Assembly: GCA_963779985.1 (NCBI GenBank)
Contig: CAVZZW010000004.1
Span: 1,527,624-1,591,623 of the forward strand
Length of the DNA stretch: 64,000 nt
Source: an uncultured Gammaproteobacteria bacterium
GTDB lineage: Bacteria; Pseudomonadota; Gammaproteobacteria; Steroidobacterales; Steroidobacteraceae
Direction of reading: 5' to 3'
The notes under the pieces are model-generated. The model ran no database searches. It was not told the DNA's origin and saw nothing but the letters and a program-made list of their open reading frames with translations. The translations under genes and the position numbers were made by a program. Within the stretch, counting starts at the first letter, position 1. Each line of letters opens with the position of its first letter. Below are positions 9,045 through 63,295 of the stretch, piece by piece.

Positions 9045-10074
9045 TCAGTGACGAAGTTGAAAGCGCAGAATCCCATTGTCGCCGGCGGCGATCGGCTGCA
9101 GCCGCCCGTTCAATGACAGCGTGCGATGCAGCGATTCGGCTCCGCCGCGCGTGGCCAGACGAAATCTGACCGTATCGCCCGTCAAGGCCACCACGCTCAC
9201 ATGCGAAATGAACGTCAGCGATTCGAGATAGGTCTGCACATTGGCATACTCTCGAAGATCGCCGACGCCGGTCACCTCGATGTCGATCGGTACCAGATTG
9301 CCGCTGGCGGCGAACAGTCCCGCATACAAATCCGCGGTTCGATTCACACCTTCCAACGCCCCGGAAAATTCGCTGCTGCGGTCCTGAAACAGATGCGTCC
9401 AACGCACGTTGGCGGCCGCAGCTCGTGCCCGTGGCCCTGCCGATGAGTATGCCCTCGCCGCCCAGGCGCCGGCCGATGTCCGCCAGGGTGGACGGTGCGG
9501 CGCCGTTCACGCCGGCGTAGTCCAGGCGATTCTTTTGCACATCGGCAGCGCTCGGCCAGAGCAGCGGCACACCGCGCAGGACAGCGGCGGCGTCGATTGC
9601 CGTTTTCAATTCAGAGGTGTCGTCGGCGGTGATGACGATGCCGGATTGGGGACCCGTCTGCGCGGTCAGCCAGACGAAGGTCGTCGGCCGCTCATGGCCC
9701 CAAAGGGGCTGGCCATTCTGCGTGAGCCAACGCTCTATGGCCGGCCCGTCGAAGGACACCCACACCTGACCGTCCGGGGCACCGCGATACTGCTGCACGT
9801 AGCGGCGCGCATTGCCGACAAGCGGCGCGAGCGCCGGGTCATCCTCGGCCGAACGGCGGCCGGTGACGCGAATCAGGACGATCTTCATGGCGGTCTGGAA
9901 GGCCTCGGTCTGCGCCGCCTCGGAGCGGTCGGCCAAGGGCGCAGTCGCCTGATAGAGCTCGGCGCGAGTCAGCGCAAAACCGGCATGGGCGACGCACAAG
10001 GCAGCCACACTCAAGCACAAAATCGCTGCCGGACGCAAATTTCGCAGACAAAAGACGCTGAAATACTGTGGCAT
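9045..10074 (-). CDS. DUF2066-like exported protein; frameshift near 9410
   Basis: MPQYFSVFCLRNLRPAAILCLSVAALCVAHA is signal-like, in ORF 8785..10146. The C-terminal half is in ORF 9045..9407 (RWTHLFQDRSSEFSGALEGV..). The position next to hda and opposite purM is recurrent in gammaproteobacteria. Confidence 0.65.
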
Positions 10075-10189
10075 GGTGTTATCGCGGAAGCCTCGAGTTC
10101 CCTGATGTAAAATACCACAGCTGGCCGACCCGCCGTGTCGGGCCAACCGGCCTGCCCGACGGGGTATCCAACCACCATTGAGGATCAGA

Positions 10190-11222
10190 ATGACTGAGCG
10201 AGCCCCGGTAACCTATCGCGAGGCTGGAGTCGATATCGACGCCGGCGAGGACTGGTCGAACGAATCAAGCCCCACGTCAAGCGCTCCATGCGCCGCGAGG
10301 TGCTGGGCGGCATAGGCGGTTTCGGCGCCTTGGTCGAGGTGCCGCTCGACCGCTACCGCAAACCCGTGCTCGTGTCGGGAACCGACGGGGTCGGCACCAA
10401 GCTGCGCCTCGCGATCGACACCCGCCGCCACGATACCGTGGGCATCGATTTGGTGGCCATGTGCGTCAACGACGTGGTGGTCCAAGGCGCCGAGCCGCTG
10501 TTCTTCCTCGACTACTTCGCCACCGGCAAGCTCGACGTCGGCGTGGGTGAACGCCTCATCGCCGGCATCGTGGACGGGTGCGTGCAAGCGGGCTGCGCAC
10601 TGGTGGGCGGCGAAACGGCCGAGATGCCGGGCATGTATCACGGCGAGGATTACGATCTGGCGGGGTTCTGCGTCGGCATCGTGGAAAAGGACGCCATCAT
10701 CGACGGATCGGCCACGCGCGCCGGCGACGTGGTTCTCGGACTGCCTTCCTCGGGACCGCATTCCAACGGCTTTTCGTTGATCCGCAAAATACTTCAGGTC
10801 GGCGGGCGCCGACCTCGAGGCTCCCATGGACGGCGTAAAGCCTGGTCGATCGACTCATGGCGCCGACGCGCATCTACGTGAAGCCGTTGCTGCGCCTGAT
10901 CGCGGAGCTTCCGGTGCACGGACTGTCGCACATCACCGGCGGCGGTCTGGTGGAGAATATTCCGCGCGTGCTGCCCGACGGGTTGGAGGTGGTTCTGGAA
11001 CGCAGCTCCTGGCGCCGCGAAGCGGTGTTCGATTGGCTGCAGCGCCAGGGTCAGGTTGCCGACGCGGAAATGTATCGGGTATTCAATTGCGGTATCGGCA
11101 TGACGATTCAACTGGCGCCGGACCATGTCGATCGTGCCATCGCCATCCTGCGCGAACTGGGTCAGGAGGCGCTGGTCATCGGCGAAGTGCGCGCGGGTAC
11201 GCGCGGTGTCGTCATCGCGTGA
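10190..11222 (+). CDS. purM: Phosphoribosylformylglycinamidine cyclo-ligase; at least 3 apparent frameshifts (about 10248, 10805, 10850)
   Basis: ATG 10190 gives [20 protein letters not shown]. It continues as [36 protein letters not shown] (ORF 10288..10881), [13 protein letters not shown] (frame of ORF 10826) and [29 protein letters not shown] (ORF 10857..11222). Confidence 0.88.
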
Positions 11223-11885
11223 AAAGCTCGCTGCCGCGGCGGCCGGTCGTCATCCTCATATCGGGACGCGGCAGCAACATGCGCGCGCTCATCGAGCAAA
11301 GCCGCGATCCCGGCGCGGCCTATACGGTCTCCCAGGTGTTTTCGGACCAGCCGGTCGCGGCCGGGCTCGAGCTGGCACGCGATCTCGGTGTGCCGGCTCG
11401 AGCGCATCGCCGCCGCCCGGACGGCGGATCGCGCCGCCTACGATCGCACCCTGGCCGCCGCGATACACGAATGCTCGCCATCGTTGATCGTGCTCGCCGG
11501 ATTCATGCGCATCCTGAGCGCACAGTTCGTAACGGATTTTGCCGGCAGAATTTTGAACATCCATCCGTCGCTGCTGCCTAAGTTTCCGGGCCTGCATACG
11601 CATCGGCGTGCTCTCGAGGCGCATGAGCCCGAGCATGGCGCAACCGTGCACTTCGTCACCGAGCAGCTCGACGGCGGTCCGCCCGTCATCCAGGCGCGCG
11701 TCGCCGTGGCGGCGGATGACGACGAGGCGAGCTTGACGGCCCGGGTGCAGGCCCAGGAACACCGCATCTACCCTCTCGCAGTGCGCTGGTTCTGCGAAGG
11801 CCGATTGCGTTACGACGATGGTCGAGCGTGGCTGGACGGAAAACTGCTGGACGAGCCGGTGCAGTTCACCGGCTCGGAAGGATAG
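11219..11885 (+). CDS. purN: Phosphoribosylglycinamide formyltransferase; frameshift near 11395
   Basis: GTG 11219 overlaps the purM stop and opens [25 protein letters not shown]. It then continues as [50 protein letters not shown] (ORF 11388..11885). Confidence 0.85.
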
Positions 11886-11894
11886 GAGGTCCCC

Positions 11895-12614
11895 ATGAGC
11901 GGTCGCGGACTCACTGCGCTGTCGCTGGCGATCTTGGCCTGCCCACTGACCCGGGCGGAGGTCGCGGCCTCGGCCGATACCGGCATCGCACCCTTTGCTG
12001 CCCACTACCAGGCGGACTGGAAAAGCATCAACGCGGGTACCAGCGAGCTCGAACTCAAGAAAGACGCCGAGCCCGGCCGCTACGTGTACACCTGGACGAT
12101 CACGGCCCGCGGTATCTTCCGGATGGTCTACCGCGACGATTTGATTCAGGAAAGCCGTTTCAGCATCGATGCCGACCACGTTCACCCGATGAAATACCAT
12201 GCCGTGGACGGCGCATCCAGCGTGGACCTGGATTTCGATTGGGATGCGGGACGCGTTCGCGGCACCTCCGAGAAGAAAGCGGTCGATCTGAAGCTCGTTG
12301 ACGGGATCCAGGACGTGATGTCCATCCAGGTCGAAGTGATGCTCGATCTAAAGAGGGGGCATTTGCCGCAGACCTTCCAGATCATCGACAAGGATGAACT
12401 GAAGGATTTCATCTACACCCAGGAAGGGACTGCCAATATCACGACCGCTCTGGGGCAGCTAGACACCGTGATCGTCTCCAGCAAGCGCGCCGGCAACAAT
12501 CGCGTTCTGCGCATGTGGTTTGCGCCCTCCCTGGGATTCGTGCCGGTTCAGGCGGAGCGGACCCGCGACGGCAAACTAGAGTTTGCCATGCGGATCAAAG
12601 CCCTGAAGCGCTAG
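11895..12614 (+). CDS. DUF3108-like exported protein
   Basis: 239 aa with a signal-like N-terminus. The position directly after purMN matches the usual DUF3108 context. Confidence 0.65.
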   Translation: MSGRGLTALSLAILACPLTRAEVAASADTGIAPFAAHYQADWKSINAGTSELELKKDAEPGRYVYTWTITARGIFRMVYRDDLIQESRFSIDADHVHPMKYHAVDGASSVDLDFDWDAGRVRGTSEKKAVDLKLVDGIQDVMSIQVEVMLDLKRGHLPQTFQIIDKDELKDFIYTQEGTANITTALGQLDTVIVSSKRAGNNRVLRMWFAPSLGFVPVQAERTRDGKLEFAMRIKALKR

Positions 12615-12682
12615 GTTTTCGGCACCGCGAAGTTGACCGGTTGGAGCACCCGCCAAGCGGTCAAAATCTTTGCGTCGAGGTA

Positions 12683-13249
12683 CTAGGTCTTCGGCAACGT
12701 GACGCCGCGCTGCCCCTGGTATTTGCCGCCGCGATCCCGGTACGAGGTTTCGCAGACCTCGTCTGATTCGAAGAACAGCATTTGCGCCACGCCTTCGTTG
12801 GCGTAGATCTTCGCCGGCAGAGGCGTGGTGTTGGAAAACTCCAGGGTAACGTGCCCTTCCCACTCGGGTTCCAGGGGCGTTACGTTCACTATGATCCCGC
12901 AACGCGCGTAAGTGGATTTCCCCAAGCACACGGTCAGCACGCTGCGCGGAATGCGGAAGAACTCCACCGTGCTCGCGAGCGCGAAGGAATTCGGCGGGAT
13001 GATGCACACCGGTCCTTTGAAATCCACGAAGGACTTTTCGTCGAAATTCTTCGGGTCGACGATGGTGGAGTTGATGTTGGTGAAAATCTTGAATTCGTCG
13101 GCGCAGCGCACATCGTAGCCGTAGCTCGAGGTGCCGTAGGAAACGATTTTGTGACCGTGTGCGACCCGCACCTGCTCGGGCGAGAACGGGTCGATCATGC
13201 CCGCGTCCGCAGCCATGCGCCTGATCCAGCGATCGCTCTTGATACTCAT
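12683..13249 (-). CDS. dcd: dCTP deaminase
   Basis: [94 protein letters not shown] confirmed at 13249. Confidence 0.92.
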
Positions 13250-14349
13250 TACGTTGGCTCTACCGTGATCTTGGGGAATGCGCGGCTGTAATCCTTGTTC
13301 AAGGTCGCGAGCCGCGCCGCTGTCCGGCGTGCCATCCGAAAGTAGGCCTGCGCACGCGCGCTGCCGGGCTCGGCAATCACCGTCGGAGCGCCCCCGTCCG
13401 CATCTTCGCGAATACGGATGTCCAAGGGCAGCTCGCCCAACAGCTGCACGCCGTATTGCGCCGCCATGCGCGCACCGCCGCCGCTGCCGAACACGTGCTC
13501 GACGTGGCCGCACTGACTGCACACATGCATGCTCATGTTCTCCACCACCCCCAGCACCCGAACCTCGACCTTCTCGAACATCTTGAGGCCCTTGCGAGCA
13601 TCCAGAAGAGCGATATCCTGGGGTGTGGTGACGATGACGGCGCCGCTCACGGGAACCCGCTGCGCCAGCGTCAACTGTATGTCTCCGGTGCCGGGCGGCA
13701 TGTCGACGACCAGATAGTCGAGATCACCCCACGTCGTCTCGCCCAGGAGCTGCGTCAAGGCCTGGGTCACCATCGGCCCGCGCCACGCCATGGGCTGTTC
13801 CGGATCGATCATGAAACCGATGGACATCACTTCGACGCCGTGAGCGCGCAACGGGGATAAATGCTTGCCGTCCGTGCTCTGCGGTTTGGCGCCGGCCAAC
13901 CCCATCATCAGCGGCTGGCTGGGGCCGTAAATATCTGCGTCCAGCAGGCCCACTTTGGCGCCCTGGGCAGCCCAGGCCAGCGCCAGATTCGCCGCCGTGG
14001 TGGACTTGCCCACCCCGCCCTTGCCAGAGGCCACCGCCACGATGTTCTTGACGTTGGCCAAGGGCTTGAGCGTGCGCTGGACCGCGTGCGCCGTGATTTG
14101 CGCGCGCAACGTGAGCTCGAGCCGGGTCTGCCCAAGAAGGGGCTGGAGGTGGTCCTGCAACGCGGACTGCAGCTCTGCCGCATAATCCGCACACGGGAAT
14201 CCAAGCACGAGTTCCACGTGAACCGTACCGCTCTGCAGTGTGACGGAGGCCACAGCTTTCGCTTCCCCGAAAGTCTGGGCGAGATAGGGGTCGGTATAGG
14301 TATTTAGTTTTTCGCGGATCGCGTTATCCGCGGTTGCAGGTTGATTCAT
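13249..14349 (-). CDS. apbC: Fe-S cluster carrier ATPase ApbC/Mrp
   Basis: MNQPATADN.. at 14349. It has the deviant Walker [19 protein letters not shown] and CSQCGH cysteines. Its stop overlaps the dcd start by 1 nt. Confidence 0.9.
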
Positions 14350-14482
14350 ATAAGCTGCCCATTGTACCGCACGCGGACAAGTGCGTGCGGTGTGGCATAA
14401 TCCAGCGTAGAGAATCAAGACTGGGTGGGGCCGCCGCAGTGGGAATGGACGGCTTCCGAGGGACGTGCAAAAAAGGCACCGA

Positions 14483-16870
14483 ATGAGTTTATTTGCCAAC
14501 TATCGTGCCGATCGGCTCATCGCCGAGGTTAGATCCAGCGGCAACCCGGGCAGCCCCCTGGCGCAAAAGGCTTTGGATAAACTGGTGGCCCTCGGTCCGA
14601 GCGCCATCGAGCCCATCGTCGACGCGCTCACGACGGCGGAAAAGCGCGAGACCCTGGCTTATGTCGACGCGCTGTCGCGCCTGATCGACACCAAGTCGCT
14701 GCCGCAATTGTTCAAGACCATGGCGGAGGCCAACGGTCGGGCGATGTCCGGGATCGCCTGGGCGCTGTCGTCGAGCAAGAACTACCCGCCGAGCGCGCTG
14801 CTCGATGCCTTGAGCAAACCCGACATGCCGAAGCAGGCCATCCTGGATGTGATCGCCGCGCAAAAGACCCGCTTCACGGTGCGCGAACTCTTGAACGCCG
14901 CGTACAGTCAGGAACCCAACGAAAGATCCGGATTGTTCAAGATCATCGCCGAAATCGCCGACGAATCTTCGATCGACGATTTGATCGCCAGGATCGAGGG
15001 CAAGGACCCGGTCGCCAGACTGCATATCATCAATGTGCTGGCCCGCTTCAATACGCCCAAAGTACAGCAAGCCGTGCAGAAGCAGCTCAAGGACAACAGC
15101 AAATTCATCCGCTCCGCCGCCCTCTCGGCGCTCGCGCGAATGGATGGGCCATTCGACATGGCCGTTCTGTGCGGCATGCTGCGCGATCCGGAAATCGAGG
15201 TGCAGAACAAGGCGGTCGACGTCGTCGTGCACGCCAATCATCCCGACACGATCAAGTACCTGGTCGACGTGCTCAAGGACGAGAACGAGTACGCGCGGCG
15301 CGCCGCCGTCGAGGTGTTGAACGTGGTCGGCACGTCGAAATCGGTCAAGTACCTGCTGGAAGTGATCGCCGACAGCGATTGGTGGGTGCGCACGCGGGCC
15401 GCCGACGCGCTCGGCAAGATCGGCGGTCCGCGGGTCGTCGACGCCGTGCTCACCCTGGTCAAGGACGACAATCAGGACATCCGGCGCGCGGCCATCGAAA
15501 TCCTCAATCAGACCAAGGACGAACGCGCGGTGGCGCAATTGATCGAAGCCACCAAGGACGCCGATTGGTGGGTGAGCGAACGCGCCGTGGATGCGCTCGC
15601 CGAGATCGGCAGCACCAAATCCCTGCCGCGCTTCGTCGAAATGCTGGGGGCGGGCGAGCCCAAATCCCTGCCGACCGTCATTCGCGCCATCGGCAAGATC
15701 GGCGATCAGAAGTGCATCGAGCACCTCCTGCCCATGCTGCAGCGGCCGGAAAACGAGATCAAGACGGAGACGATCACGGCACTCGCCAAGCTCGCGGACG
15801 AACGGCGCGCCGACACGATCCGGGTGCGGCTGCAGGCGGTCTCGGGCACGGCCGACGCGACCATCAGTCAAGCCGTGGCGCGCGCCATGACGGAACTGGA
15901 CAACCGCTTCTCCACGCAGCAAATCGCCGCCAATCAGCGCGCCGAAAGAATGCAGGAGCCGGCCAAGACCCTGCTCATCGACAACCAGGATCTCGCCAAG
16001 GTCGTACAGGAGCAAGAGGTCCAGGCCGCCAAACTGGATATCGCCACGCTGAAGACCGGCGATATCATCGAGGGCCGGTACAAATACATCGAAAAGATCG
16101 GCAAGGGCGCATTCGGCACGGTATTGCTGATGGAAGACACCGTGGTCGAAGAGCGGCTGATCCTGAAGTTCCTGAATCCGAACGTATCCGCGGACGAGGA
16201 GATGATGAAGCGCTTCGTGCACGAGTTGCGCTACAGCCGCAAGATCACGCACAAGAACGTCATCCGCATCTATGATTTCCTCTACATCCGCGGCAACTAC
16301 GCCATCTCCATGGAATATTTCCCGTCGCACACGCTGGGCGGCGAGATCGTCAACGAGAAGCCGGTCGCGCTCAAACGCGCGGTCAAATTCGGGATCGACA
16401 TCGCGACCGGCATGGCGGTCGCGCACCAGGCCGGCATCGTGCATCGGGATTTGAAGCCGGCGAACATCCTGATCGACAACGACGGTCTGCTCAAGATCGT
16501 CGACTTCGGCGTGGCGGCGGCCCAGACCCAGGGCGACACGCAATTGACCAAGACCGGCTATGTCATCGGATCTCCCAAGTACATGGCGCCGGAGCAGATT
16601 CTGGGCAAGAAGGTCGATGAACGGGCCGATATCTACAGCTTGGGCGTCATCCTGTACGAGATGTTCAGCGGCGTACCGCCCTACTCGCGCGGCGATCACA
16701 TGTCGGTCATGTACCAGCACGTGCAGGGCAAGGCCCGTCCGCCCATCGATATCAACAAAGATTTGCCGTTGGAATTGAACAACTTAGTCATGAAATGCAT
16801 GGCGCTGGACAAGGCCAAGCGCGCGCAGAGCATGGACGAACTGCGCCTGTCGCTCGAAAAGTTCCTCTAG
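14483..16870 (+). CDS. Soluble HEAT-repeat protein fused to a C-terminal Hanks-type Ser/Thr protein kinase
   Basis: The first roughly 520 aa contain repeated HEAT/PBS-lyase-like units (DSDWWVRTRAADALGKIGG, DADWWVSERAVDALAEIGS, NQDIRRAAIEIL). The kinase motifs are GKGAFGTV, LILKF, HRDLKPANILI, VDFGVA and SPKYMAPE. No TM segment. ATG at 14483 (M7 of the ORF). Confidence 0.85.
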   Translation: MSLFANYRADRLIAEVRSSGNPGSPLAQKALDKLVALGPSAIEPIVDALTTAEKRETLAYVDALSRLIDTKSLPQLFKTMAEANGRAMSGIAWALSSSKNYPPSALLDALSKPDMPKQAILDVIAAQKTRFTVRELLNAAYSQEPNERSGLFKIIAEIADESSIDDLIARIEGKDPVARLHIINVLARFNTPKVQQAVQKQLKDNSKFIRSAALSALARMDGPFDMAVLCGMLRDPEIEVQNKAVDVVVHANHPDTIKYLVDVLKDENEYARRAAVEVLNVVGTSKSVKYLLEVIADSDWWVRTRAADALGKIGGPRVVDAVLTLVKDDNQDIRRAAIEILNQTKDERAVAQLIEATKDADWWVSERAVDALAEIGSTKSLPRFVEMLGAGEPKSLPTVIRAIGKIGDQKCIEHLLPMLQRPENEIKTETITALAKLADERRADTIRVRLQAVSGTADATISQAVARAMTELDNRFSTQQIAANQRAERMQEPAKTLLIDNQDLAKVVQEQEVQAAKLDIATLKTGDIIEGRYKYIEKIGKGAFGTVLLMEDTVVEERLILKFLNPNVSADEEMMKRFVHELRYSRKITHKNVIRIYDFLYIRGNYAISMEYFPSHTLGGEIVNEKPVALKRAVKFGIDIATGMAVAHQAGIVHRDLKPANILIDNDGLLKIVDFGVAAAQTQGDTQLTKTGYVIGSPKYMAPEQILGKKVDERADIYSLGVILYEMFSGVPPYSRGDHMSVMYQHVQGKARPPIDINKDLPLELNNLVMKCMALDKAKRAQSMDELRLSLEKFL

Positions 16871-17035
16871 GAGCCTGTCTAACCAATGATCGCCGTCGCG
16901 AGGGCGAGCCACGGCGAGCAGATTTTGGCGATCGTTTCGCGCGCATAGTGGGCACTATCTAAGCGAAAGGATCGCCAAAAGATGCCGCTGTGGGGCGCCC
17001 GCAGCAGGCGCATCATTAGTCAGACAGGCTCCTAG
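16867..17035. repeat. 169-nt imperfect palindrome (long hairpin; MITE/REP-like or RNA structure)
   Basis: CTAGGAGCCTGTCTAACCAATGAT (16867-16890) pairs with ATCATTAGTCAGACAGGCTCCTAG (17012-17035) with 2 mismatches. TTTTGGCGATCGTTTCGC (16923-16940) pairs with GCGAAAGGATCGCCAAAA (16963-16980) with 1 mismatch. The apex is ATAGTG-GG-CACTAT (16945-16958). Confidence 0.8.
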
Positions 17036-17117
17036 GGCTTGATGGACCTCACGTTTATGGCTTGATTCCGGCCCAAACGCTCGAAAATCCAATCGCTTAC
17101 GGGTAGCCTTGGGCGTT

Positions 17118-18212
17118 ATGGCAAGAATCGACGCATTCCTCAAGTTAGGCGTGGCCCAAGGCTGCTCGGACCTGCATCTGGCCGTGGGGGTGCCGCCCAT
17201 GCTGCGCATGCACGGCGATCTGATGCCCATCAAGTTCCGCGACTTGGGCGAGGCGGAACTCGAGGGCTATATCACCGAGGTGCTGACCCAGAACCAGCAA
17301 AGAACGCTGCGCGAAGGCAATGACATCGACTTCTCGTACGTATCGACGGAGGGCGGGCGCTTCCGAGTCAACGTATTTCGCAAGGAAACCGGCATCGGTG
17401 CCGCATTTCGCGCCATTCCCACCCAGATGCCGACCATGGAGCAATTGGGGCTGCCGCCCATCGTCCGCAAGCTCTGCGACTACCACCAAGGAATGATCTT
17501 GGTTACGGGCTCCACCGGCACCGGCAAGTCCACCACACTGGCTTCGATGATCGATTATCTGAATTCGACCCGTTCGCTCAACATCATCAGCCTGGAAGAT
17601 CCGATCGAGTTCGTTCACCGCAGCAAGACGAGCCAAGTCATTCAGCGCGAGCTCGGCACGCACCTGCCATCCTTCGCCGAGGGCGTGCGCGCGGCCATGC
17701 GCGAGGATCCCGACGTCATCCTGGTCGGCGAGTTGCGCGATGCCGAAACCATTTCCATGGCGATGACCGCGGCCGAGACCGGACATCTGGTGCTCGGTAC
17801 GCTGCACACGACCAGCGCCACCAAGACCATCGACCGCATCATCGATGCGCTGCCCACCGAGGAGCGCGAGCAAACCAAGAGCTTCCTGTCGCAAAGTCTG
17901 ATCGCCGTCATCACCCAGGTGCTGATCAAGAGTCCCGACCAGCGCGCGCGGCGCGCCGTCTGCGAAGTCATGGTGCTCACCAAGGCCATCGGCAAGCTCA
18001 TCATGACCGATCAGTCGCATCAGATTCCGAGCCAGCTGCAAATGGGCAAGGAATACGGCATGCAATTGATGGATCAAGCATTGCTGGCGGCCATCAACGC
18101 CAAGGAAGTCGATCCTGAACACGCGTACACCTATGCGTCCGACAAGCGCCAGTTCCAGCGCTTCGTGTCCGATATGGCAGGGGCGCCGCCCATCGCCCCC
18201 GTGAACTCTTAG
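17118..18212 (+). CDS. PilT-family hexameric ATPase, divergent paralogue 1
   Basis: MARIDAFLKLGVAQGCSDLHLAVGVPPMLRMHGDL, Walker A GSTGTGKST, DPDVILVGELRD, GHLVLGTLHTTSA. The PilT AIRNLIRE box is replaced by AIGKLIMTDQ. Confidence 0.85.
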   Translation: MARIDAFLKLGVAQGCSDLHLAVGVPPMLRMHGDLMPIKFRDLGEAELEGYITEVLTQNQQRTLREGNDIDFSYVSTEGGRFRVNVFRKETGIGAAFRAIPTQMPTMEQLGLPPIVRKLCDYHQGMILVTGSTGTGKSTTLASMIDYLNSTRSLNIISLEDPIEFVHRSKTSQVIQRELGTHLPSFAEGVRAAMREDPDVILVGELRDAETISMAMTAAETGHLVLGTLHTTSATKTIDRIIDALPTEEREQTKSFLSQSLIAVITQVLIKSPDQRARRAVCEVMVLTKAIGKLIMTDQSHQIPSQLQMGKEYGMQLMDQALLAAINAKEVDPEHAYTYASDKRQFQRFVSDMAGAPPIAPVNS

Positions 18213-18220
18213 GGAATCCC

Positions 18221-19282
18221 GTGCCGGCCATCGACAATTATTTGAAGCAAGTGTTGGAGCGCAACGGTTCGGACCTGCACTTTCTTGCGGGGGATCCGCC
18301 GCGGGTCCGGCAGTATGGCGAGCTCAAGGCATTGAGTCCCGAACCGCTCACGGCCGAGATGGTCAAGACGACGCTGTACGAAATCATGCCGAAGCTGTCG
18401 GTGGAGCGCTTCGAAGCCAAGGACGGCACGGACTTCGCCTACAGCATGCCGGGCATTGCCCGGTTTCGCGTCAATGTCATGCGCCAGTTGAACGGCATGG
18501 GCGCAGTGTTCCGCGCGATTCCTTCCACGGCCCGCACCGCCGCGGAGCTCAATCTGCCGCAAGCTGTCATGGATCTCTGCAAGATCAACAGCGGCCTGAT
18601 CTTGGTCACGGGCAAGACCGGTTCGGGCAAGTCCACCACACTCGCGGCGATGATCGACGATATCAACACCCGCGAGAAAGGCCATATTCTCACCATCGAG
18701 GATCCGATCGAGTTCGTGCACATGCGCAAGAACTGCTTGATCAGCCAGCGCGAGATCGGGGTGCATGCAACCTCGTTCTCGAGCGCACTGTTATCGGCAT
18801 TGCGCGAGGATCCTGACGTCATTCTGGTGGGCGAGCTGCGCGACCTCGAGACCATGAGCATCGCGGTCACCGCGGCGGAAATGGGCATTCTGGTGATGGG
18901 CACGCTGCATACCAACGGTGCCGCGGCCACGGTCGATCGCTTGGTGAACGCCTTCCCTGCGGACAAGCAATCCCATGTGCGCACCATGCTCTCGACCAGC
19001 CTGCGCGGCGTCGTTTCCCAGCAACTCATCCCCAAAGCGGACAAACAGGGTCGCGTCGCGGCCCTGGAGATCCTGATCAACACACCGGCGGTCGCCAATC
19101 TGATACGGCAGGGCAAGATGGACCAGCTGGAAAATGCCATGCAAAGCGGCGCAGCGGTCGGCATGCGGCTGATGGATACGGCCATTCTAACGCTGATGGA
19201 GCAGCGGCAGATTACCGGCAAGGAGGCCTTCAAGAAGGCCATCAACAAATCCCGGTTCGAGCAATATCGCGAGGCGTCCTAG
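18221..19282 (+). CDS. PilT-family hexameric ATPase, paralogue 2
   Basis: GTG start 8 nt after the previous stop. GSDLHFLAGDPPRVRQYGEL, Walker A GKTGSGKST, DPDVILVGELRD, TLHTNGA, AVANLIRQGKMDQL. Confidence 0.85.
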   Translation: MPAIDNYLKQVLERNGSDLHFLAGDPPRVRQYGELKALSPEPLTAEMVKTTLYEIMPKLSVERFEAKDGTDFAYSMPGIARFRVNVMRQLNGMGAVFRAIPSTARTAAELNLPQAVMDLCKINSGLILVTGKTGSGKSTTLAAMIDDINTREKGHILTIEDPIEFVHMRKNCLISQREIGVHATSFSSALLSALREDPDVILVGELRDLETMSIAVTAAEMGILVMGTLHTNGAAATVDRLVNAFPADKQSHVRTMLSTSLRGVVSQQLIPKADKQGRVAALEILINTPAVANLIRQGKMDQLENAMQSGAAVGMRLMDTAILTLMEQRQITGKEAFKKAINKSRFEQYREAS

Positions 19283-19337: not shown

Positions 19338-21407
19338 ATGACCCAACGACGCCGAATTCTAGTTACCAGCGCACTGCCCTACGCCAATGGCCCGATCCAC
19401 TTGGGCTATGTGCTCGAAGCCGTGCAAACCGACATTTGGGTGCGATTTCAAAAGCTTCGCGGCCATGAGTGCTACTACGTCTGCGCCGACGATACCCACG
19501 GCACGCCCATCATGCTCAAGGCGCAGTCCGAGGGACTGACGCCGGAGCAATTGATCGCGCAAGTCAACGTCGAGCACCGGCGCGACCTGGCCGACATGTT
19601 GATCGGCTTCGACAATTACGGTTCGACGCATGCGCCGGAAAACCAGGCGCTGTGCGCGAGCATGTATTTGAAGCTGCGTGCGGCGGACTACATCGACCAG
19701 CGCAGCGTGCGCCAGGCCTATGACGAAACGGCCAAGATGTTCTTGCCGGACCGCTACGTCAAGGGAGTTTGCCCCGTCTGCGGCACGGCCGATCAGTACG
19801 GCGATTCCTGCGAGAATTGCGGCTCCACGTACACGCCGGCCGATCTCAAGAACCCGGTCTCCGTGGTCAGCGGGTCGACACCCGTTTGGCGCGAGTCGGA
19901 ACACTTTTTTTTCAAGCTGAGCGCCTTCGAGAAGCCCTTGAACACGTGGGTGCGCAGCGGCGCGGTCCAGGAGAGCGTCGCACGCAAGCTCGACGAATGG
20001 TTTTCGCAGGGCCTGCGCGACTGGGACATTTCCCGCGATGCGCCCTACTTCGGTTTCGAGATTCCCGATGCACCGGGCAAGTATTTTTACGTCTGGTTCG
20101 ACGCCCCCATCGGCTACCTGGCCAGCTTGACGCAGCTATCCGCCCGCACCGGATTGAAGTTCGACGATTTTCTGGGGGCCGAATCGAGCGCCGAACTGCA
20201 TCACTTCATCGGCAAGGACATTCTGTATTTTCACACCCTGTTCTGGCCGGCGGTACTGCAGGCGTCGGGAATGCGCCGTCCGACCAGCGTGCACGCGCAC
20301 GGATTCCTGACCATCAACGGTCAGAAAATGTCCAAATCGCGCGGCACCTTCATCACGGCGCGCCGCTACTTGGACGCCTTCGCGCCGGAATACCTGCGTT
20401 ACTATTTCGCCGCCAAGCTGGGCGCCGGCATCGACGACATCGACATGAACTTGGACGAGTTCGCCACGCGCCTGAATTCGGACATCGTCGGCAAGCTCGT
20501 GAACATTGCGAGCCGCTGCGCCGGATTCATCACCAAGAATGCCGACGGCACGCTGGCGGGCGCCCTGCCGGATCCGGAGCTGTATTCCGCGTTCGCGGCG
20601 GCCGGCGACAATATCGCCAAGTCATACGAGATGCGCGACTCGGCGGCCGCCGTCCGCGACATCATGACGCTCGCCGATCGCGCCAACCAATACATCGACC
20701 TGCACAAGCCCTGGAGCCTGGCGAAGCAGCCCGACAAGGCCGCCGAGGTCCAGGCCGTCTGCACCCAGGGCCTGAATCTGTTCAGAACGCTGATGATTTA
20801 TCTGCAGCCGGTGTTGCCGGACATGGCGGCCAAGGCGCGGCGTTTCTTCCACGAGTCGAGCTGGGATTGGGCGGACGCCGCAACCCCCTTGCTGGGCACT
20901 GCGATTGCTCCGTACGAAGCGCTGGCGACACGCCTCGACCCCAAGGCCGTGGCGCGCCTGGTCGAACCGCAAGGTGCGACGGCGGCGATGCCGGCCGCCG
21001 CAGGTCGCCAGGCTGCCGTCAACGCAGCCACCCCCGGCGCGTCGGATACCGCCACCCTGGCTGCGGCAGTGGAGGGCAATTTGATCTCCATCGACGATTT
21101 CCTGCGCATCGACCTGCGGGTCGCGAAGGTGCTGAACGCCGATCTGGTGGCCGGTGCGGACAAACTGTTGAAATTGCGCGTGGATCTGGGCGAGCTCGGC
21201 GAGCGAGAAATCTTCGCCGGCATTCGGGCAGCCTACGAACACGCCGATCTGGTGGGCCGTCTCATCGTCGTCGTCGCGAACCTGGAGCCGCGCAAAATGC
21301 GCTTCGGCACCTCGGAGGGAATGATGTTGGCCGCCGGCCCCGGCGGCAAGGACATATTCGTACTGTCGCCCGACACGGGAGCGGCGCCCGGCATGCGCGT
21401 CAAATGA
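19338..21407 (+). CDS. metG: Methionyl-tRNA synthetase with C-terminal tRNA-binding domain
   Basis: [13 protein letters not shown] (HIGH region), zinc knuckles CPVCG..CENCG, KMSKSRG, and a C-terminal [20 protein letters not shown] domain. The 689-aa frame is intact. Confidence 0.95.
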
Positions 21408-36181: not shown

Positions 36182-38866
36182 TCAAACGCTGTTGGCCGCC
36201 TTCAGCACCCGCTGCGGCTGCGACACGCCATAGCCCTGCGCGTAGTCGACGCCCAGGCTTTGCAGCATATTGATGATCTCTTGATTCTCCGCGAACTCGG
36301 CAATGGTCTGCTTGCCGGTCAGATGCCCGATTTCATTGATCGAACGCACCATCTCGCGGTCGATGGGATCGTGCAGGATCTCCTTGACGAAGCTGCCGTC
36401 GATCTTCAAGTAATCGACCGGGAAGTGCTTCAGATATCCGAACGATGACAGGCCGGTGCCGAAATCGTCGAGCGCAAACTTACACCCCAATTCCTTCAGC
36501 GCCTGAATGAAGCGATTCGCCTGCGAGAAGCTCGCGATCGCCGCCGTCTCGGTGATTTCGAAGCAGATCTTGGTGGCATCCAGGCCGCTGCGGTGAAATT
36601 GATCGATCACGTAGGGCAGGAATTTATCGTCGCCCAGGCTCTGCCCCGAAAGATTGATCGAGCACATGGTCAATTTCTCGCGCTCGTCGGCTTCCGATAC
36701 CAGCCAACGGAACGCGTTTTCAATGACCCAACGATCGATGCTCGGCGTGATCCCGTAGCGCTCCGCCGCGGTCATGAAGTTGTCCGGCGCGACGATCTTG
36801 CCGGCCTCGTCGCGCATGCGTAGCAGCAGCTCGTAGTGCGCGCCCGATTCGGGCGTCTGCAACGGCAGAATGGTCTGCCTGAACAGCTCGAACCGCCCCT
36901 CCTCCAGGGCATTGTTGATGCGCGCCGCCCATTGCATCTCACGGCGCCGGCGCATCAGATCGATGTCGTTTTCTTCGAAGCTGTGGACCCGGTTGCGGCC
37001 CGCCTCCTTGGCCGCCTGGCAAGCGCTGTCCGCGGCGCTCAGCACCGACGCCACGTCGGCATTGTCCGCGGAAAGCGGCACTACGCCGATGCTCGCGCCC
37101 AGACGGAAGGTGCGCTCCTCCCAGGTGAACTTGAAGTTGCGCACCGCCTCGCGCAGCGTTTCCGCCGTCCGCATGGCCTCATCCAGAGAGCAGCTCTCCA
37201 GAAGAATGCCGAACTCATCGCCTCCCAGCCGCGCCAGCGTATCGCGCCAGCGGACTTTGGATTTGAGCAGGCCTCCGACCTGGCCCAGCAACGCGTCGCC
37301 GGCGCTGTGGCCGCAGGTGTCGTTGACGATCTTGAACTGGTCCAAATCGAGGACGCACAGCGCGTACGAGGTCTCGCGCGCCTTCGCGCTCTTCAAGGCC
37401 CGCTCCATGCGGTTTTCGAATTCGCGCCGGTTGACCAGCCCCGTGAGGACGTCGTGGCTGGCGTGATAGCTCAGGCGCCGGTTCAGCTCGCGTGCCTCGC
37501 TGACGTCGTGGAACACGAGCACTCCGCCGGACACCGCGCCGCTGCCGTCGCGTATCGGAGATGCCGTGCTCTCGACATAGATCTCGTTGCCGTCACGCCG
37601 GATCAGCAACATCGGCCGCACCGATTTGATCGACCGCGTGCGCCTGATCGCAACGGCCAGCGGATTCTCCAGAGGCTCGCAGGTTTCCTCGTGAAAGGCG
37701 CGGAAAATCTCTTCGATGGCGCGGCCCTGGCTATCCTCGAGGCGCCACCCCGTGAGCGCCTCCGCAACCGGATTCACATAGTCGATCACGCCCTTGGCAT
37801 CGGTGGTGATGACACCGTCGCCGATGCTCTGGAGAGTGATTTGCGCACTCTCCTTCTCGCGGAACAGCGCTTCCTCGTACAGTTTGCGCTCGGTGATGTC
37901 GAGTTCGACGCCGACCAGGCGCAGCAAGCGGCCCTTGTCGTCGACTTTCGCCTTCGCGCGGCTGATCACCCAACGCCACTCGCCGGTCGCATGGCGCATG
38001 CGATGCAGACTCTCGAAAATCGGCGTCTTGCCCGCCACGTGATCCCGAATGGCGGCTTGTACGCGCGACATATCGTCCGCGTGCACGAGGGTGCGCCAGT
38101 CCGGCTCCTGCCCCACGTCGGCTTCGTCATACCCCAGCATCGCTTTCCAGCGCGGCGAGAGATAGACGCGATTGTTGACGGTGTCGAAATCCCAAAGCCC
38201 GTCGTTCGCGCTGTACAACGCCAGCTCGTTGCGCTCTTCCAAATCGCGCAGGTGGTGCTGGATCTGGATGCGCTCCAATCCGGTGGACAGGCTGCTGCCC
38301 ACGAGCTTCATCAGCAGATGCAACTGAACTTCCCAGTTCTCGCGCGGCAGCGCGCCGGCTACACCTAAGAGGCCTGCCGCCCGGCCATCGATGAAGTAGC
38401 CGATGATCAGCACCGAGCCGATGCCGAGATGAATCCACACGGCGGCATCGTCGCTCTGATCGCCGCGGGGCTTGGCCGTATCGCGCAACTCCGATACGCG
38501 CAGCGGCGCCAGCCGCGATTGCAGCCACGGCAGGGTTTCCAAGGACTGACCGCGCAACTGCTCCGGATTGCCGGTCGCGAGCATGCCGCGCGCAACTTGA
38601 ATCTCATTGAACAGTCCCGACTCGGCGTCGAGATGGATATGGAAGGCGGCATCCGTGTGCGTCGACTCGCGCAGCAGTTCCAAGTTGGCGCCGATGACCT
38701 CGAACGCCGTCGCCGCGGTCATGGACTGGAAATCGACCGCGATCTTGGTGCAGATCACATCGAGACCCACGGCCGGACGCATACCGCGCCTCGGCCAGGC
38801 CTGCGGCGACAATATGTCCGACGCGGTCAGGTCTGGGTGGCGGGGATCGTGGGGGGCTATTGCCAT
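36182..38866 (-). CDS. Multidomain c-di-GMP protein: N-terminal sensor (GAF-like), 2 PAS, GGDEF, EAL
   Basis: The PAS regions include ANDGLWDFD. RLGGDEFGILL is the GGDEF motif. YELLLRM, DDFGTGLSS and FEITETAAI are the EAL-domain motifs. 894 aa, intact. Confidence 0.9.
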   Translation of the reverse strand: MAIAPHDPRHPDLTASDILSPQAWPRRGMRPAVGLDVICTKIAVDFQSMTAATAFEVIGANLELLRESTHTDAAFHIHLDAESGLFNEIQVARGMLATGNPEQLRGQSLETLPWLQSRLAPLRVSELRDTAKPRGDQSDDAAVWIHLGIGSVLIIGYFIDGRAAGLLGVAGALPRENWEVQLHLLMKLVGSSLSTGLERIQIQHHLRDLEERNELALYSANDGLWDFDTVNNRVYLSPRWKAMLGYDEADVGQEPDWRTLVHADDMSRVQAAIRDHVAGKTPIFESLHRMRHATGEWRWVISRAKAKVDDKGRLLRLVGVELDITERKLYEEALFREKESAQITLQSIGDGVITTDAKGVIDYVNPVAEALTGWRLEDSQGRAIEEIFRAFHEETCEPLENPLAVAIRRTRSIKSVRPMLLIRRDGNEIYVESTASPIRDGSGAVSGGVLVFHDVSEARELNRRLSYHASHDVLTGLVNRREFENRMERALKSAKARETSYALCVLDLDQFKIVNDTCGHSAGDALLGQVGGLLKSKVRWRDTLARLGGDEFGILLESCSLDEAMRTAETLREAVRNFKFTWEERTFRLGASIGVVPLSADNADVASVLSAADSACQAAKEAGRNRVHSFEENDIDLMRRRREMQWAARINNALEEGRFELFRQTILPLQTPESGAHYELLLRMRDEAGKIVAPDNFMTAAERYGITPSIDRWVIENAFRWLVSEADEREKLTMCSINLSGQSLGDDKFLPYVIDQFHRSGLDATKICFEITETAAIASFSQANRFIQALKELGCKFALDDFGTGLSSFGYLKHFPVDYLKIDGSFVKEILHDPIDREMVRSINEIGHLTGKQTIAEFAENQEIINMLQSLGVDYAQGYGVSQPQRVLKAANSV

Positions 38867-60132: not shown

Positions 60133-61440
60133 TTGCACGTGCGTGGAATCATAGGAGCCAGACTTTTAGCGAGCCCAGAAGCACAGCCGGGGCGGGGTCC
60201 CTTCGAGATCCGCGATACGCGATTGCCCGGCTTTCTTTTGCGGGTTCAGCCCAGTGGCGCGCGAGCCTATGTCGCTCAAACCGGCCGTGGGGAGCGGGTC
60301 ACATTCGCCAAAGTCGGGGTCCTGACTCCAGACGAAGCACGCGAACGCTGTCAGCTCATACTCGGAAACGTCGCCCACGGTCGCGAACCTCTTCACGGCA
60401 TTGACGGAACAGAAAGAATAACACTCGGGGCCTTTATAGAATCAACGTACAAGCCGTGGCTGTTAGCTAATCGGCCTCGAAGCGCCGTACAAAGCCTCCA
60501 GCGTTTAGAGACCCTTTTTGCAAAATGGAATGCGACCCCTCTCGAACATTTGACCGTTAAAAGTTTCGAAACGTGGAAGCTTGATCGCATCAACCAAGGT
60601 CGCAAGCCATCCACGATCGCACGCGACCTCGCGACAATCTCTGGCGTTTTGAGTCGAGCCGTGAAACTCGACAAACTAGCGTCAAACATCATTAGAAAAG
60701 TTGATGTGCCGAAGTTAGACCGTTCACCAAAGGTGCGATACCTCAGCATCGAGGAAGCGGGACGCCTGCGCACCGCGCTGAGAACCCGAGACCATAAAAT
60801 GCGTATGCAACGGGAGTCGGCAAATAAATGGCGAAGATCTAGACAAAAAAAACAATTGCCCAATTTCGAGGATTTCGCCGACCATCTCGAGCCAGCAATT
60901 ATTTTGAGCCTCAACACGGGCATCCGTCGGGGAGAACTTCTTGGACTCAAATGGAGTTCTATCGATATGACTAATAAAATCCTTACCATTGACGGCGTCG
61001 GATCGAAAACGATGCAAACACGCCATATACCACTCAACACTGAAGCAATGAATGTTCTAGAGCGCTGGAAGAAACAAACGACGGGCGAACGTCCTTTCCC
61101 ATTTACAGGCTTAAAGACAGCGTGGAACGCCTTGTTAGGGCAGGCAAAGATTGAAGCGTTTCGCTGGCACGACATGCGGCACGATTTCGCAAGTAGACTC
61201 GCCTCTAAGGGCGTGCCGCTCAATACAATACGCGAACTCCTTGGGCACCAGTCTTTAGCTATGACACTGCGCTACGCGCACCTGCAGCCAGATCAAAAGG
61301 CGGCGGCGGTGGCCACACTAGTTGACTTGAGTAGTCTAACGCAAGGAGCAGCCGCGAATGCGCCGGCTGCTCGCTCGTCATCAAGCCCTAAGGCGCGTTT
61401 GCGCGCTCCACACCCGCTAGGCGGCGCCGCGCGAGGCTGA
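60133..61440 (+). CDS. P4-type tyrosine integrase (DUF4102 N-terminal arm-binding domain)
   Basis: [23 protein letters not shown], then the catalytic region [42 protein letters not shown] (R..HxxR..Y). Confidence 0.88.
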
Positions 61441-61447
61441 CCTGTGG

Positions 61448-63295
61448 TCATGTCGCCTTGCGTAACAACAACACGCACGGATCGCTCTTTGGCGTCAAAA
61501 TTGTTGTCTGAACTTTCGCCCGAGTTACGCTTACGCGAAAATTCTGTCTTGCATGTGTCAGATCGCCATCCAAAATATTTCCGCGAACGATCCGGTCCGG
61601 ATTGGAAACAATCTTCCCTTTTTGGGTTCTTGGCCATCCCTCGAATATTATGACTTCATCGAACTGTTTCCCTTTGGCCTTGTGCATATTCATAACGATT
61701 ACACCTGACTCGGGCTTGTGTGCGACAGCAAAGTGATGCCGTGTGAATGCCTGCCGAACTATCTGTAATGCATTTTTGTAAGAACCGTTCTGCCGCCAAT
61801 CCAGAGCCAGCGATTCGCGAAGCTCGGTCCCTCGGTCCAATAGCCTAACATTTTTTGCCTCTTCCGCGACCTGGCCGAACCGTTTGCACCCGCATTCCGC
61901 CAGTGCGACACGGATCATGGTCCAATCATCGGCGGGATTTCCCGTCCGCTTTGTCGCCACGCATGTTTCATACCCCGTTGACAATGGAATAACGATGCTA
62001 TTTGCTGGAAGCGACTTCTTCTTCTCCTTACAAATTGTAGCCTTTTCGAAGGCCTTTAAGATGGCGATCGATTCTGAAATATCAGACGCTGAAGGCGCAT
62101 CCCCGCCCCTCCCACGGAAGTAATTGCAGAGAAGATCCAAACACGCCCTGAACTCGCCGTCGGCACCAGCACATTGCAACAAAAAGGCAATGACCTCTGC
62201 CGCGAGAATTGCTCCTTCCATGTCGATTGCCGCGTGGTGAGATATTGATGGCATGGAGGTATCCTTCTCGCGAAATGCGTCTGACACTTGCCGCATCATC
62301 TTTTTGGTCGGCACCAAAATCGCCAGTGTCCAGTTGTTATCCTTAGCCTCGATCAGCCTCTTTCTCGCCTGAAGTGTGTGCCCCTTTAGAGACGCTATCG
62401 CTTGATTACCATTTGCCTCAAAGGTGAAAAGGCGCATCCCTTGATACTTATTCTGAAACTGTCCGCTAAGAATATGATTCCCGAAGAGCGCTATGTCCGT
62501 ACCTGCACTTCGATGATTTTCATCGCCGAGATCAAATTCCTTAGGCTTAAACGTTTCTCTGAAATGGTTCAGACGCTCCGGATCAGCGCCGATGAAGTCA
62601 TATATTCTTTGCTCTGCGTCCGCCAACGCGATGAGCGTACTGGCTATCCCGAGTCTTTGAACTACGCGCCATTGCTCCGCGTTCGTGTCCTGAAATTCAT
62701 CAAGAACAATTACTGGATATACGGATGAGATCAACTCCCTGATCTTTCGGCTTCCGGTCAGTATTGTCGCAGTGAGATCAGCAAACAAATCGAAGCAGAC
62801 CTTGCCATCTTCGAATGCAAGGCGTCGGACTTCGTTGCTTTCTCGCTGTATCTTGTCTATCCCCCGAGCGGGCGTCAGCTTCTTAATTGGACCAAACTCG
62901 TGCCTGATTTGAGATAGGGCAACGGCCTGCGCGGAGGGCGTGAGAATCTCTAACTTGCGTGGCATTCCGAGCAGGTAGCCATGCGTCTTCAGAATTCTCC
63001 AAAAGAACGCATGGTATGTATCAACCTCCACGCGCCTGCGTACCTCGGCATTATTTCCGGTGTGTTCGTCCAATGCTTCCAATATGCGAGCCACGGTAGC
63101 CCGCGCAAAGCTGAGGAAGAGCACCCTTTGAGTGTGCCGCGGCAGCCTTGCAACTAAGAGGTCCGCCTTTATGATGGACACAGTGGTCTTGCCAGAGCCG
63201 GGGCCGCCATGGACAAGCAGATGGCCCGCTTGAGCAATTATTCCCTTCTTCTTTTCCGATAGCTCAAACAAGGTCCACCGCATCCTCATCGACAC
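61448..63295 (-). CDS. UvrD/Rep-family SF1 helicase (GajB-like)
   Basis: VHGGPGSGKTTV (Walker A), VLDEFQDTN (motif II), MNMHKAKGKQFD, RVSVTRAK (motif VI). Confidence 0.85.
   Translation of the reverse strand: MSMRMRWTLFELSEKKKGIIAQAGHLLVHGGPGSGKTTVSIIKADLLVARLPRHTQRVLFLSFARATVARILEALDEHTGNNAEVRRRVEVDTYHAFFWRILKTHGYLLGMPRKLEILTPSAQAVALSQIRHEFGPIKKLTPARGIDKIQRESNEVRRLAFEDGKVCFDLFADLTATILTGSRKIRELISSVYPVIVLDEFQDTNAEQWRVVQRLGIASTLIALADAEQRIYDFIGADPERLNHFRETFKPKEFDLGDENHRSAGTDIALFGNHILSGQFQNKYQGMRLFTFEANGNQAIASLKGHTLQARKRLIEAKDNNWTLAILVPTKKMMRQVSDAFREKDTSMPSISHHAAIDMEGAILAAEVIAFLLQCAGADGEFRACLDLLCNYFRGRGGDAPSASDISESIAILKAFEKATICKEKKKSLPANSIVIPLSTGYETCVATKRTGNPADDWTMIRVALAECGCKRFGQVAEEAKNVRLLDRGTELRESLALDWRQNGSYKNALQIVRQAFTRHHFAVAHKPESGVIVMNMHKAKGKQFDEVIIFEGWPRTQKGKIVSNPDRIVRGNILDGDLTHARQNFRVSVTRAKVQTTILTPKSDPCVLLLRKAT

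Follow-up and report, generated by a model that had tools for sequence, protein, structure and literature searches.

A HEAT-solenoid Hanks-type kinase gene linked to a pair of PilT-like ATPase genes between apbC and metG in a member of the Steroidobacteraceae

The locus described here lies in a 64,000-nucleotide stretch of DNA from an uncultured gammaproteobacterium of the Steroidobacteraceae (contig CAVZZW010000004.1, positions 1,527,624 to 1,591,623; the whole stretch is called the window, and positions are counted from its first letter). It consists of three co-directional genes, encoding a HEAT-repeat Ser/Thr kinase and two PilT-family ATPases (A1 and A2), which in the open reading frame (ORF) listing separate apbC, on the opposite strand, from metG (Table 1). 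Both flanking genes are recognized by NCBIfam equivalog models, ApbC at 439 bits against a cut-off of 348 and methionine--tRNA ligase at 893 bits, above its cut-off. The E. coli K-12 genes mrp and metG are direct divergent neighbours, as the initial annotation of this DNA had stated, with 131 bp between them; its statement that 4.9 kb with three same-strand genes lies between apbC and metG here agrees with the ORF coordinates. What appears new, against the open-access literature searched, is a conserved module of kinase and PilT-like ATPases that includes two subfamilies of PilT.

Table 1. Features of the kinase-A1-A2 locus and its flanks, in coordinates of the window.
Feature	Coordinates	Strand	Basis
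apbC/mrp, upstream divergent flank	13249..14349	-	NCBIfam ApbC equivalog; conserved neighbour in the Type I arrangement
Sigma-70-like promoter match, apbC-kinase intergenic region	14374..14401	+	Consensus scan, 9/12 positions plus extended TG; weak, pattern match only
HEAT/PBS-type alpha-solenoid, kinase-protein residues 1-476	14483..15910	+	Pfam HEAT_2, HEAT and HEAT_PBS; AlphaFold2
Disordered variable linker, residues 478-515	15914..16027	+	pLDDT <50; gap-rich and variable
Hanks-type Ser/Thr kinase domain, residues 525-795, plus stop codon	16055..16870	+	Pfam Pkinase; Foldseek
Near-perfect palindrome of ~170 nt, kinase-A1 spacer	16865..17037		RNA folding energy
A1, PilT-family ATPase paralogue 1	17118..18212	+	TIGR01420, 418 bits; A1 clade, 100% bootstrap
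A2, PilT-family ATPase paralogue 2	18221..19282	+	TIGR01420, 440 bits; A2 clade, 99% bootstrap
metG, downstream flank, 55 nt past A2	19338..21407	+	NCBIfam methionine--tRNA ligase

The first gene is an ORF of 801 codons (14465-16870), whose start we place at the ATG at 14483, giving a product of 795 aa, because its homologues are 793-796 aa long. Pfam detects HEAT_2 in six stretches (1e-59, 199 bits) and Pkinase (PF00069; 3e-52, 178 bits against a cut-off of 31.7), which identifies a Hanks-type kinase. The gene is thus what it was initially taken for, a set of HEAT repeats fused to a complete Hanks kinase, and the motifs named for it (GKGAFGTV, LILKF, HRDLKPANIL, DFG and APE) are all present in the translation. 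An AlphaFold2 model computed with 32 homologues has a mean predicted local distance difference test score (pLDDT) of 84. In this model the N-terminal region forms one continuous helical solenoid of about 30 helices (pLDDT ~87-94), the fold defined by tandem HEAT/PBS-lyase repeats, and its sequence resembles the alphaRep designed HEAT proteins. The linker that follows is predicted to be disordered; it is variable, and in relatives it is rich in Ser and Thr. The kinase domain is modelled with a flexible activation loop. Its best Foldseek matches are Stk1 of S. aureus and PknB and PknA of M. tuberculosis, with target-normalised template modelling (TM) scores of 0.83-0.90 among the top hits.

Across 36 colinear homologues (27-66% identity to the window protein), little or no variation occurs at the catalytic residues K562, E581, H654-R-D656, N661 and D674-F-G, and the activation-loop residue T689 is nearly invariant in the same set. 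Because the catalytic residues are conserved to this degree, the protein is apparently under selection as an active RD kinase. Neither a transmembrane segment nor a PASTA domain is predicted in the AlphaFold2 model, and the protein scores 270 bits against NF033483, the model for Stk1/PknB PASTA kinases, below the cut-off of 450 and with the match confined to the kinase domain. An exhaustive profile search places colinear HEAT-kinases of ~800 aa in dozens of 50%-identity clusters; public annotations of the kinase read "HEAT repeat domain-containing protein" or "serine/threonine protein kinase". Proteins with 93-94% identity carry names that point to a Steroidobacteraceae-like gammaproteobacterium.

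The second and third genes encode paralogous PilT-like ATPases that are 42% identical. The A1 frame offers starts at 17109 and 17118, and we use 17118 because orthologues begin with M[AP]R[IL]DAF; from the stop of A1 to the start of A2 is 8 nt, the spacing first reported for this pair. Pfam T2SSE matches both proteins, and both exceed the cut-off of 319 bits of NCBIfam TIGR01420 (pilT_fam), which places them in the PilT/PilU family. Full-length alignments to Pseudomonas aeruginosa PilT (3JVV) score 316 bits for A1 and 330 for A2, and PilU (9N32) scores below PilT with both (248 and 266 bits, respectively). An exact-sequence look-up of the window A1 found no match.

We surveyed the motifs of the two proteins over 22 A1 and 20 A2 orthologues. 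A1 keeps Walker A (GSTGTGKST), the Asp box (EDPIEF), the atypical Walker B with its catalytic Glu (DVILVGELRD) and a two-histidine His box (ETGHLVLGTLHT). A2 likewise keeps the first three of these, and in its His box (EMGILVMGTLHT) the first histidine is replaced by isoleucine, a change conserved across the A2 clade. The canonical C-terminal AIRNLIRE of PilT is found in neither protein. As the initial annotation observed, A1 reads AIGKLIMTDQ at this position and A2 carries a weak version, AVANLIRQ; the latter is a partial match, reading AVANLIRQGK within a clade pattern of A[VI].N.IR.GK. AIRNLIRE is present in PilT and absent from PilU, and both histidines of the His box have been reported to be required for function (PMC6762196). 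Because A2 has isoleucine in place of the first of these, its catalysis may be altered or dependent on a partner. The complementary losses, of AIRNLIRE in A1 and of the first His-box histidine in A2, suggest that the two are sub-functionalised partners, probably acting together in the way that PilU depends on PilT.

To place the locus among its relatives, we used a 72-nt degenerate pattern covering residues H590 to F613 of the kinase domain, an ungapped stretch specific to the family. It recovered all 7 known loci of the family and none of 78 loci with generic kinases. An earlier scan of genome contigs with the full-length kinase alignment had responded to generic kinase motifs, and 2 of its 80 listed loci belonged to the true family. 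The pattern matches at least 120 loci in metagenome contigs, and the counts given for these loci, here and below, are among the matches listed. By tblastn, A1 lies directly downstream of the kinase on the same strand in 72 of the 85 loci with at least 700 bp of downstream sequence, and A1 followed by A2 in 48 of the 56 with at least 1.9 kb; none of these 56 has one ATPase alone. Homologues with ~40-92% kinase identity were also found on two gammaproteobacterial contigs (913 and 937 kb), in a Candidatus Methylomirabilis metagenome-assembled genome (MAG) of the NC10 phylum, in a Candidatus Tectomicrobia MAG and in Kaarinaea lacus. In all of these the kinase is followed by two T2SSE genes, save where the contig ends after the first. 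Synteny of the kinase gene with the ATPase pair, whose failure in related genomes the initial annotation had named as grounds for rejecting a joint system, therefore holds down to ~40% kinase identity and in unrelated contexts.

In the distant, fuller versions of the locus the stop codon of the kinase overlaps the start codon of A1. The window A1 is 62-65% identical to the first-position ATPases of distant loci and 41-45% to those in second position; A2 has the converse pattern, being 56-59% identical to the second ATPase of these loci, so that orthology is reciprocal. Conservation is higher in the ATPases than in the kinase; in one relative (L002), for example, the kinase is 63%, A1 78% and A2 75% identical to the window proteins. 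The trio is co-inherited in a fixed order in Gammaproteobacteria, NC10 and Tectomicrobia and in at least two unrelated genomic settings, and its grouping is not a chance neighbourhood. In the open-access literature searched, no Hanks kinase is described as linked to ATPases of the PilT family. The trio is a conserved module undescribed in that literature, built of known families and with a regulatory logic for which there is precedent.

The relationship of A1 and A2 to canonical PilT and PilU was examined in a neighbour-joining tree (348 columns, 300 bootstraps; the A2 of locus L096 was left out). References were PilT, PilU (P. aeruginosa, 9n32), Geobacter PilT4 (5zfq) and Thermus PilT, taken from alignments to Protein Data Bank entries, together with the yggS-pilT-pilU loci of Xanthomonas sacchari and Acinetobacter baumannii and a Legionella pilT. 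The canonical gammaproteobacterial PilT proteins of Pseudomonas, Xanthomonas, Acinetobacter and Legionella form a clade with 100% bootstrap support and 73-84% identity, and PilU a second clade with 100% support and 67-69% identity within it. The two ATPases fall into neither of these clades (a clean fit to both was what the initial annotation had said would count against it); they belong to an A1 and an A2 clade of their own, which join at 85%. Identity of the window proteins is 46-51% with canonical PilT and 34-39% with PilU. On this evidence we take A1 and A2 to be two new, ancient subfamilies of PilT.

That both ATPases pass TIGR01420, and that pilT and pilU usually lie in tandem, would also fit the ordinary PilT and PilU of the host with the kinase as an unrelated neighbour. 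We regard this explanation as extremely unlikely, and it is largely refuted by synteny and phylogeny: neither ATPase is in a canonical clade, the order is reversed with the AIRNLIRE-less gene first, the yggS context is absent, and linkage of the kinase to the pair is seen in 48 of 56 informative loci as well as in different phyla and contexts, with overlapping stop and start codons. A neighbourhood of a different kind occurs in an Acidobacteriota MAG (L025), in which a long generic Ser/Thr kinase gene (match at 10001-13497) lies ~2.5 kb upstream of a PilT-like gene (16013-17056). The product of the latter groups with canonical PilT and not with A1 or A2, and this neighbourhood is probably coincidental.

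The trio occurs in two types of setting. In Type I, the arrangement of the window, divergent apbC precedes kinase-A1-A2-metG. Among ATPase-linked metagenome loci, apbC is upstream on the opposite strand in 29 of the 34 with at least 1.5 kb of upstream DNA, and metG follows A2 in 28 of the 34 with at least 3.5 kb downstream; this setting is kept at kinase identities down to ~50%. The G+C content at third codon positions (GC3) is 0.81-0.85 in the trio and 0.76-0.82 in the flanks, and base composition is also flank-like. Because apbC and metG flank the trio in most informative loci, the "insertion" that the initial annotation placed between them is correctly located and is old, having been maintained vertically in a large clade; it is not a recent island, and we reject a recent horizontal insertion on the host-like composition and the conserved position. 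The window carries a minimal three-gene core, which in a Steroidobacteraceae-like lineage has a set place between apbC and metG.

In Type II the trio is found elsewhere in the genome and with extra genes. Immediately upstream of the kinase is a DUF6812-like gene coding for 150-180 aa, and past A2 there is a ~220-aa FHA protein; FHA-EAL, FHA-GAF-HD or FHA-GAF-cyclase fusions are close by, as are PP2C phosphatases. The fullest layout (L207) has PP2C and FHA genes, then the small gene, kinase, A1, A2 and a PP2C gene, then FHA-EAL. Kinase, PP2C and FHA are all present in four loci (L082, L151, L169 and L207), and FHA proteins occur in four others (L083, L085, L196 and L206). The FHA-EAL neighbours retain the EAL and DDFGAG motifs. 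All homologues of the DUF6812-like protein are annotated as "hypothetical", nothing on DUF6812 was found in the open-access literature searched, and the AlphaFold2 model of the protein is poor (mean pLDDT 54, with the N-terminal half unmodelled).

Sister HEAT-kinases (L108, L134 and L208, from metagenome and Logan contigs), which sometimes occur as tandem pairs, are followed by PP2C or PP2C-DUF8082 and a MoxR-VWA ATPase. HEAT-kinases therefore recur beside ring ATPases of two unrelated families, PilT-like and MoxR-VWA. MoxR-VWA genes are of a class linked to conflict systems in PMC7159879, and the kinase domain of the window protein scores against the defence-kinase models PD-T4-6 and mad6; one relative of the locus (L085) also has AbiEi/AbiEii and a transposase nearby. 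These observations would fit an anti-phage or conflict system, for instance a kinase-triggered abortive response with the ATPases as effectors, which we nevertheless consider very unlikely. The PADLOC matches reflect a generic kinase domain, the ATPases match no defence model and give weak P-loop hits only, and PADLOC does not find all components of any one defence system. Moreover, the trio keeps a fixed position between two housekeeping genes over deep divergence, its composition is host-like, and the kinase is >90% conserved across many metagenome variants, which together make the pattern that of core genes and not of a patchy defence island.

With moderate confidence, we read the trio as one module that joins threonine phosphorylation to two PilT-like motors of its own. 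In the soluble Hanks kinase the HEAT solenoid is tethered to the catalytic domain by the flexible linker, and A1 and A2 would, by family precedent, form hexamers. The solenoid could dock onto the ATPase ring or rings, or onto another partner, and the activated kinase could phosphorylate its own linker, the ATPases or both, switching the activity or the localisation of the motors. Control through Thr phosphorylation might run from the kinase to the motor pair or from the motor pair to the kinase. Where PP2C is present, it would reset the signal, and FHA-enzyme fusions, where present, would relay it to pools of cyclic di-GMP (c-di-GMP) or cyclic nucleotides. The module would then be a threonine-phosphorylation pathway acting on a motor pair, analogous to the control of type VI secretion by PpkA, PppA and Fha1. 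The proposal of the initial annotation fares in a similarly graded manner: its reading of an undescribed module is supported by the separate clades and by synteny, whereas phospho-regulation of the motors and a non-pilus use of PilT-like ATPases, the two functions that it offered, remain proposals.

Several points weigh against the coupling of kinase and motors. That the kinase phosphorylates or binds A1 and A2 is itself something we infer. The loci were found through a kinase pattern, so that linkage is read from the kinase towards the ATPases, and 13 of the 85 loci lack ATPases; the kinases of these are divergent (25-47% best-hit identity), except for that of L108, a C-terminal kinase fragment with 67% identity to that of L082, and some of these loci have PP2C and MoxR-VWA genes instead. 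One large clade of the apbC/metG type makes up most of the metagenome sample, and its counts are not independent events; recurrence across phyla and neighbourhoods is the stronger argument. The tree is distance-based and includes few reference sequences. Finally, no homologue of the FHA, PP2C or DUF6812-like genes is present in the 64-kb window, so that the model draws its phospho-reader part from relatives.

The neighbourhood bears less directly on what the motors act upon. The initial annotation stated that no type IV pilus gene occurs in the 64 kb; this stands insofar as tblastn finds no further T2SSE-type gene there and the 20 larger ORFs outside the region have no pilus Pfam match, small ORFs such as those of pilins not having been scanned exhaustively. 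Pilus genes are likewise absent from the annotated 10 kb on either side in a close relative and from the vicinity of the module in annotated loci, and no further T2SSE-type (PilB-like) match occurs among those listed for the 120 metagenome loci. The canonical pilT-pilU loci that we inspected also lie apart from other pilus genes, adjoining yggS, and the lack of pilus neighbours is for this reason uninformative. A2 is 51% identical to P. aeruginosa PilT, compared with 53% for Geobacter PilT and 49% for Thermus PilT. A2 thus equals the bona fide PilTs of other phyla in its likeness to PilT, and on this ground the client of the motors would most likely be a type IVa pilus-type (retraction) machine.

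A real module that is independent of pili is a less likely but substantial alternative. Its PilT-like rings, perhaps heteromeric, would act on another substrate or serve as a sensory or mechanical signalling element, with Thr phosphorylation and cyclic-nucleotide turnover as output. Along with the absence of pilus genes and PilB-like matches just described and the position of A1 and A2 outside the canonical clades, this alternative draws on the recurrent neighbours, which are signalling proteins (FHA-EAL, FHA-GAF-HD, FHA-GAF-cyclase and PP2C), and on the sister HEAT-kinases paired with MoxR-VWA, which hint that the scaffold-kinase regulates ring ATPases generally; non-pilus relatives of PilT also exist, DotB and TraJ scoring as distant ones. 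It has to contend with the closeness of A2 to PilT, including the AIRNLIRE-like motif that A2 keeps, and with the separation of canonical pilT-pilU from pilus genes. The c-di-GMP enzymes, moreover, are classic regulators of type IV pili. Still more tentatively, we suggest a specific form of such a machine, in which the HEAT-kinase is assembled on, or gated by, a heteromeric A1/A2 ring and the FHA-enzyme fusions, reading Thr phosphorylation, set c-di-GMP or cyclic-nucleotide levels. If true, secretion-type motor ATPases would here have a new role as components of signal transduction, one conserved in several phyla.

The coupling of a kinase to a motor pair, which we prefer, touches on an open problem in type IV pilus biology, namely how retraction-type ATPases are switched on and off. 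The operon offers a testable hypothesis of phosphothreonine-based post-translational control of PilT-type motors, and A1 and A2, with their complementary motif losses, provide a natural system for studying cooperation between paired PilT-like rings. PilT-like paralogues are common and mostly unexplained. The module is abundant in soil and sediment Gammaproteobacteria of the Steroidobacteraceae-like type and occurs also in Methylomirabilis and Tectomicrobia, and it may shape the surface behaviour of these environmentally important, little-studied groups.

Apart from the three genes, the locus contains the palindrome listed in Table 1, which takes up most of the 247 nt that separate the kinase from A1. 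Its RNA has a minimum free energy of -114.8 kcal/mol (z = -11.4). By blastn there is no copy in any related locus compared and no second copy in the window, and Rfam gives no match for it and nothing credible in the region. In relatives the spacer ranges from an overlap up to 377 nt. Probably the palindrome was inserted and does not belong to the conserved module; it may be an insertion similar to a miniature inverted-repeat transposable element or a repetitive extragenic palindrome, or a terminator or transcript-processing structure that uncouples expression of the kinase and the ATPases.

In two very close relatives (L001 and L120) the kinase, A1, A2 and ApbC are ~88-97% identical to their window counterparts, unlike MetG, which at the same position is 51-52% identical; the window MetG is 78-83% identical to that of other close relatives (L131 and L158). 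This suggests that, within the clade, a divergent allele or xenologue has replaced metG in place. In L001 (6969-8762), the dCTP deaminase gene dcd, which adjoins apbC, contains an intein with a LAGLIDADG endonuclease and has a 597-aa product, and the dcd gene of the window (12683-13250) appears intein-free.

Elsewhere in the window, the only c-di-GMP-related gene seen encodes an 894-aa PAS-PAS-GGDEF-EAL protein (36182-38866, - strand); it is separated from the module by 17 kb, and nothing indicates that the two are linked. GC3 drops from ~50 kb onward. Towards the end of the window, a tyrosine-recombinase/integrase gene (60133-61440, + strand) adjoins a Gabija defence system, with a full-length GajB (61448-63295, - strand; 727 bits) and a GajA cut by the window end (63264-63980, - strand; 232 bits). 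No tRNA gene was found in the window.

Of the systems already known, the PknB/Stk1 kinases are the closest to the first gene product. The kinase domains are ~31-36% identical, with the TM scores given above, and both are RD kinases with conserved activation-loop threonines; the window kinase differs in having no transmembrane helix or PASTA domain and in its 476-residue N-terminal HEAT solenoid.

The ATPases resemble the PilT/PilU pair in being encoded by tandem same-strand genes, in their length of ~350-370 aa and full-length alignment to PilT structures, and in the Walker A, Asp box and Walker B motifs found in both. One member is AIRNLIRE-like (A2) and the other lacks the motif (A1), as in PilT versus PilU. 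They differ in gene order, with the AIRNLIRE-less A1 first, in the missing first His-box histidine of A2, in the absence of a yggS-pilT-pilU context, and in the link to a HEAT-kinase, which is unseen at the canonical pilT-pilU loci inspected. Like A1 and A2, the extra PilT paralogues such as Neisseria PilT2, Geobacter PilT1-4 and the Myxococcus PilT-like proteins are members outside the canonical pair (PMC10790696, PMC5065972 and PMC13584747). In our tree, Geobacter PilT4 falls outside both the A1 and the A2 clades, and no report of kinase linkage of any PilT paralogue was found in the open-access literature searched.

The nearest precedent for the regulatory logic is the threonine phosphorylation pathway of the type VI secretion system, with the kinase PpkA, the PP2C phosphatase PppA and the FHA protein Fha1 (TagH) (PMC3953482). 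In both, a Hanks kinase, PP2C and FHA proteins are found beside an ATPase-driven machine, although in our family this full set is present in relatives (L082, L169 and L207) and the window version has neither PP2C nor FHA. The systems differ further in the kinase, here a soluble protein whose HEAT solenoid stands where the other system has a transmembrane or periplasmic sensor; in the partner ATPases, which are of the PilT type and not ClpV or other type VI secretion components; and in the FHA proteins, which are fused to EAL, HD or cyclase enzymes.

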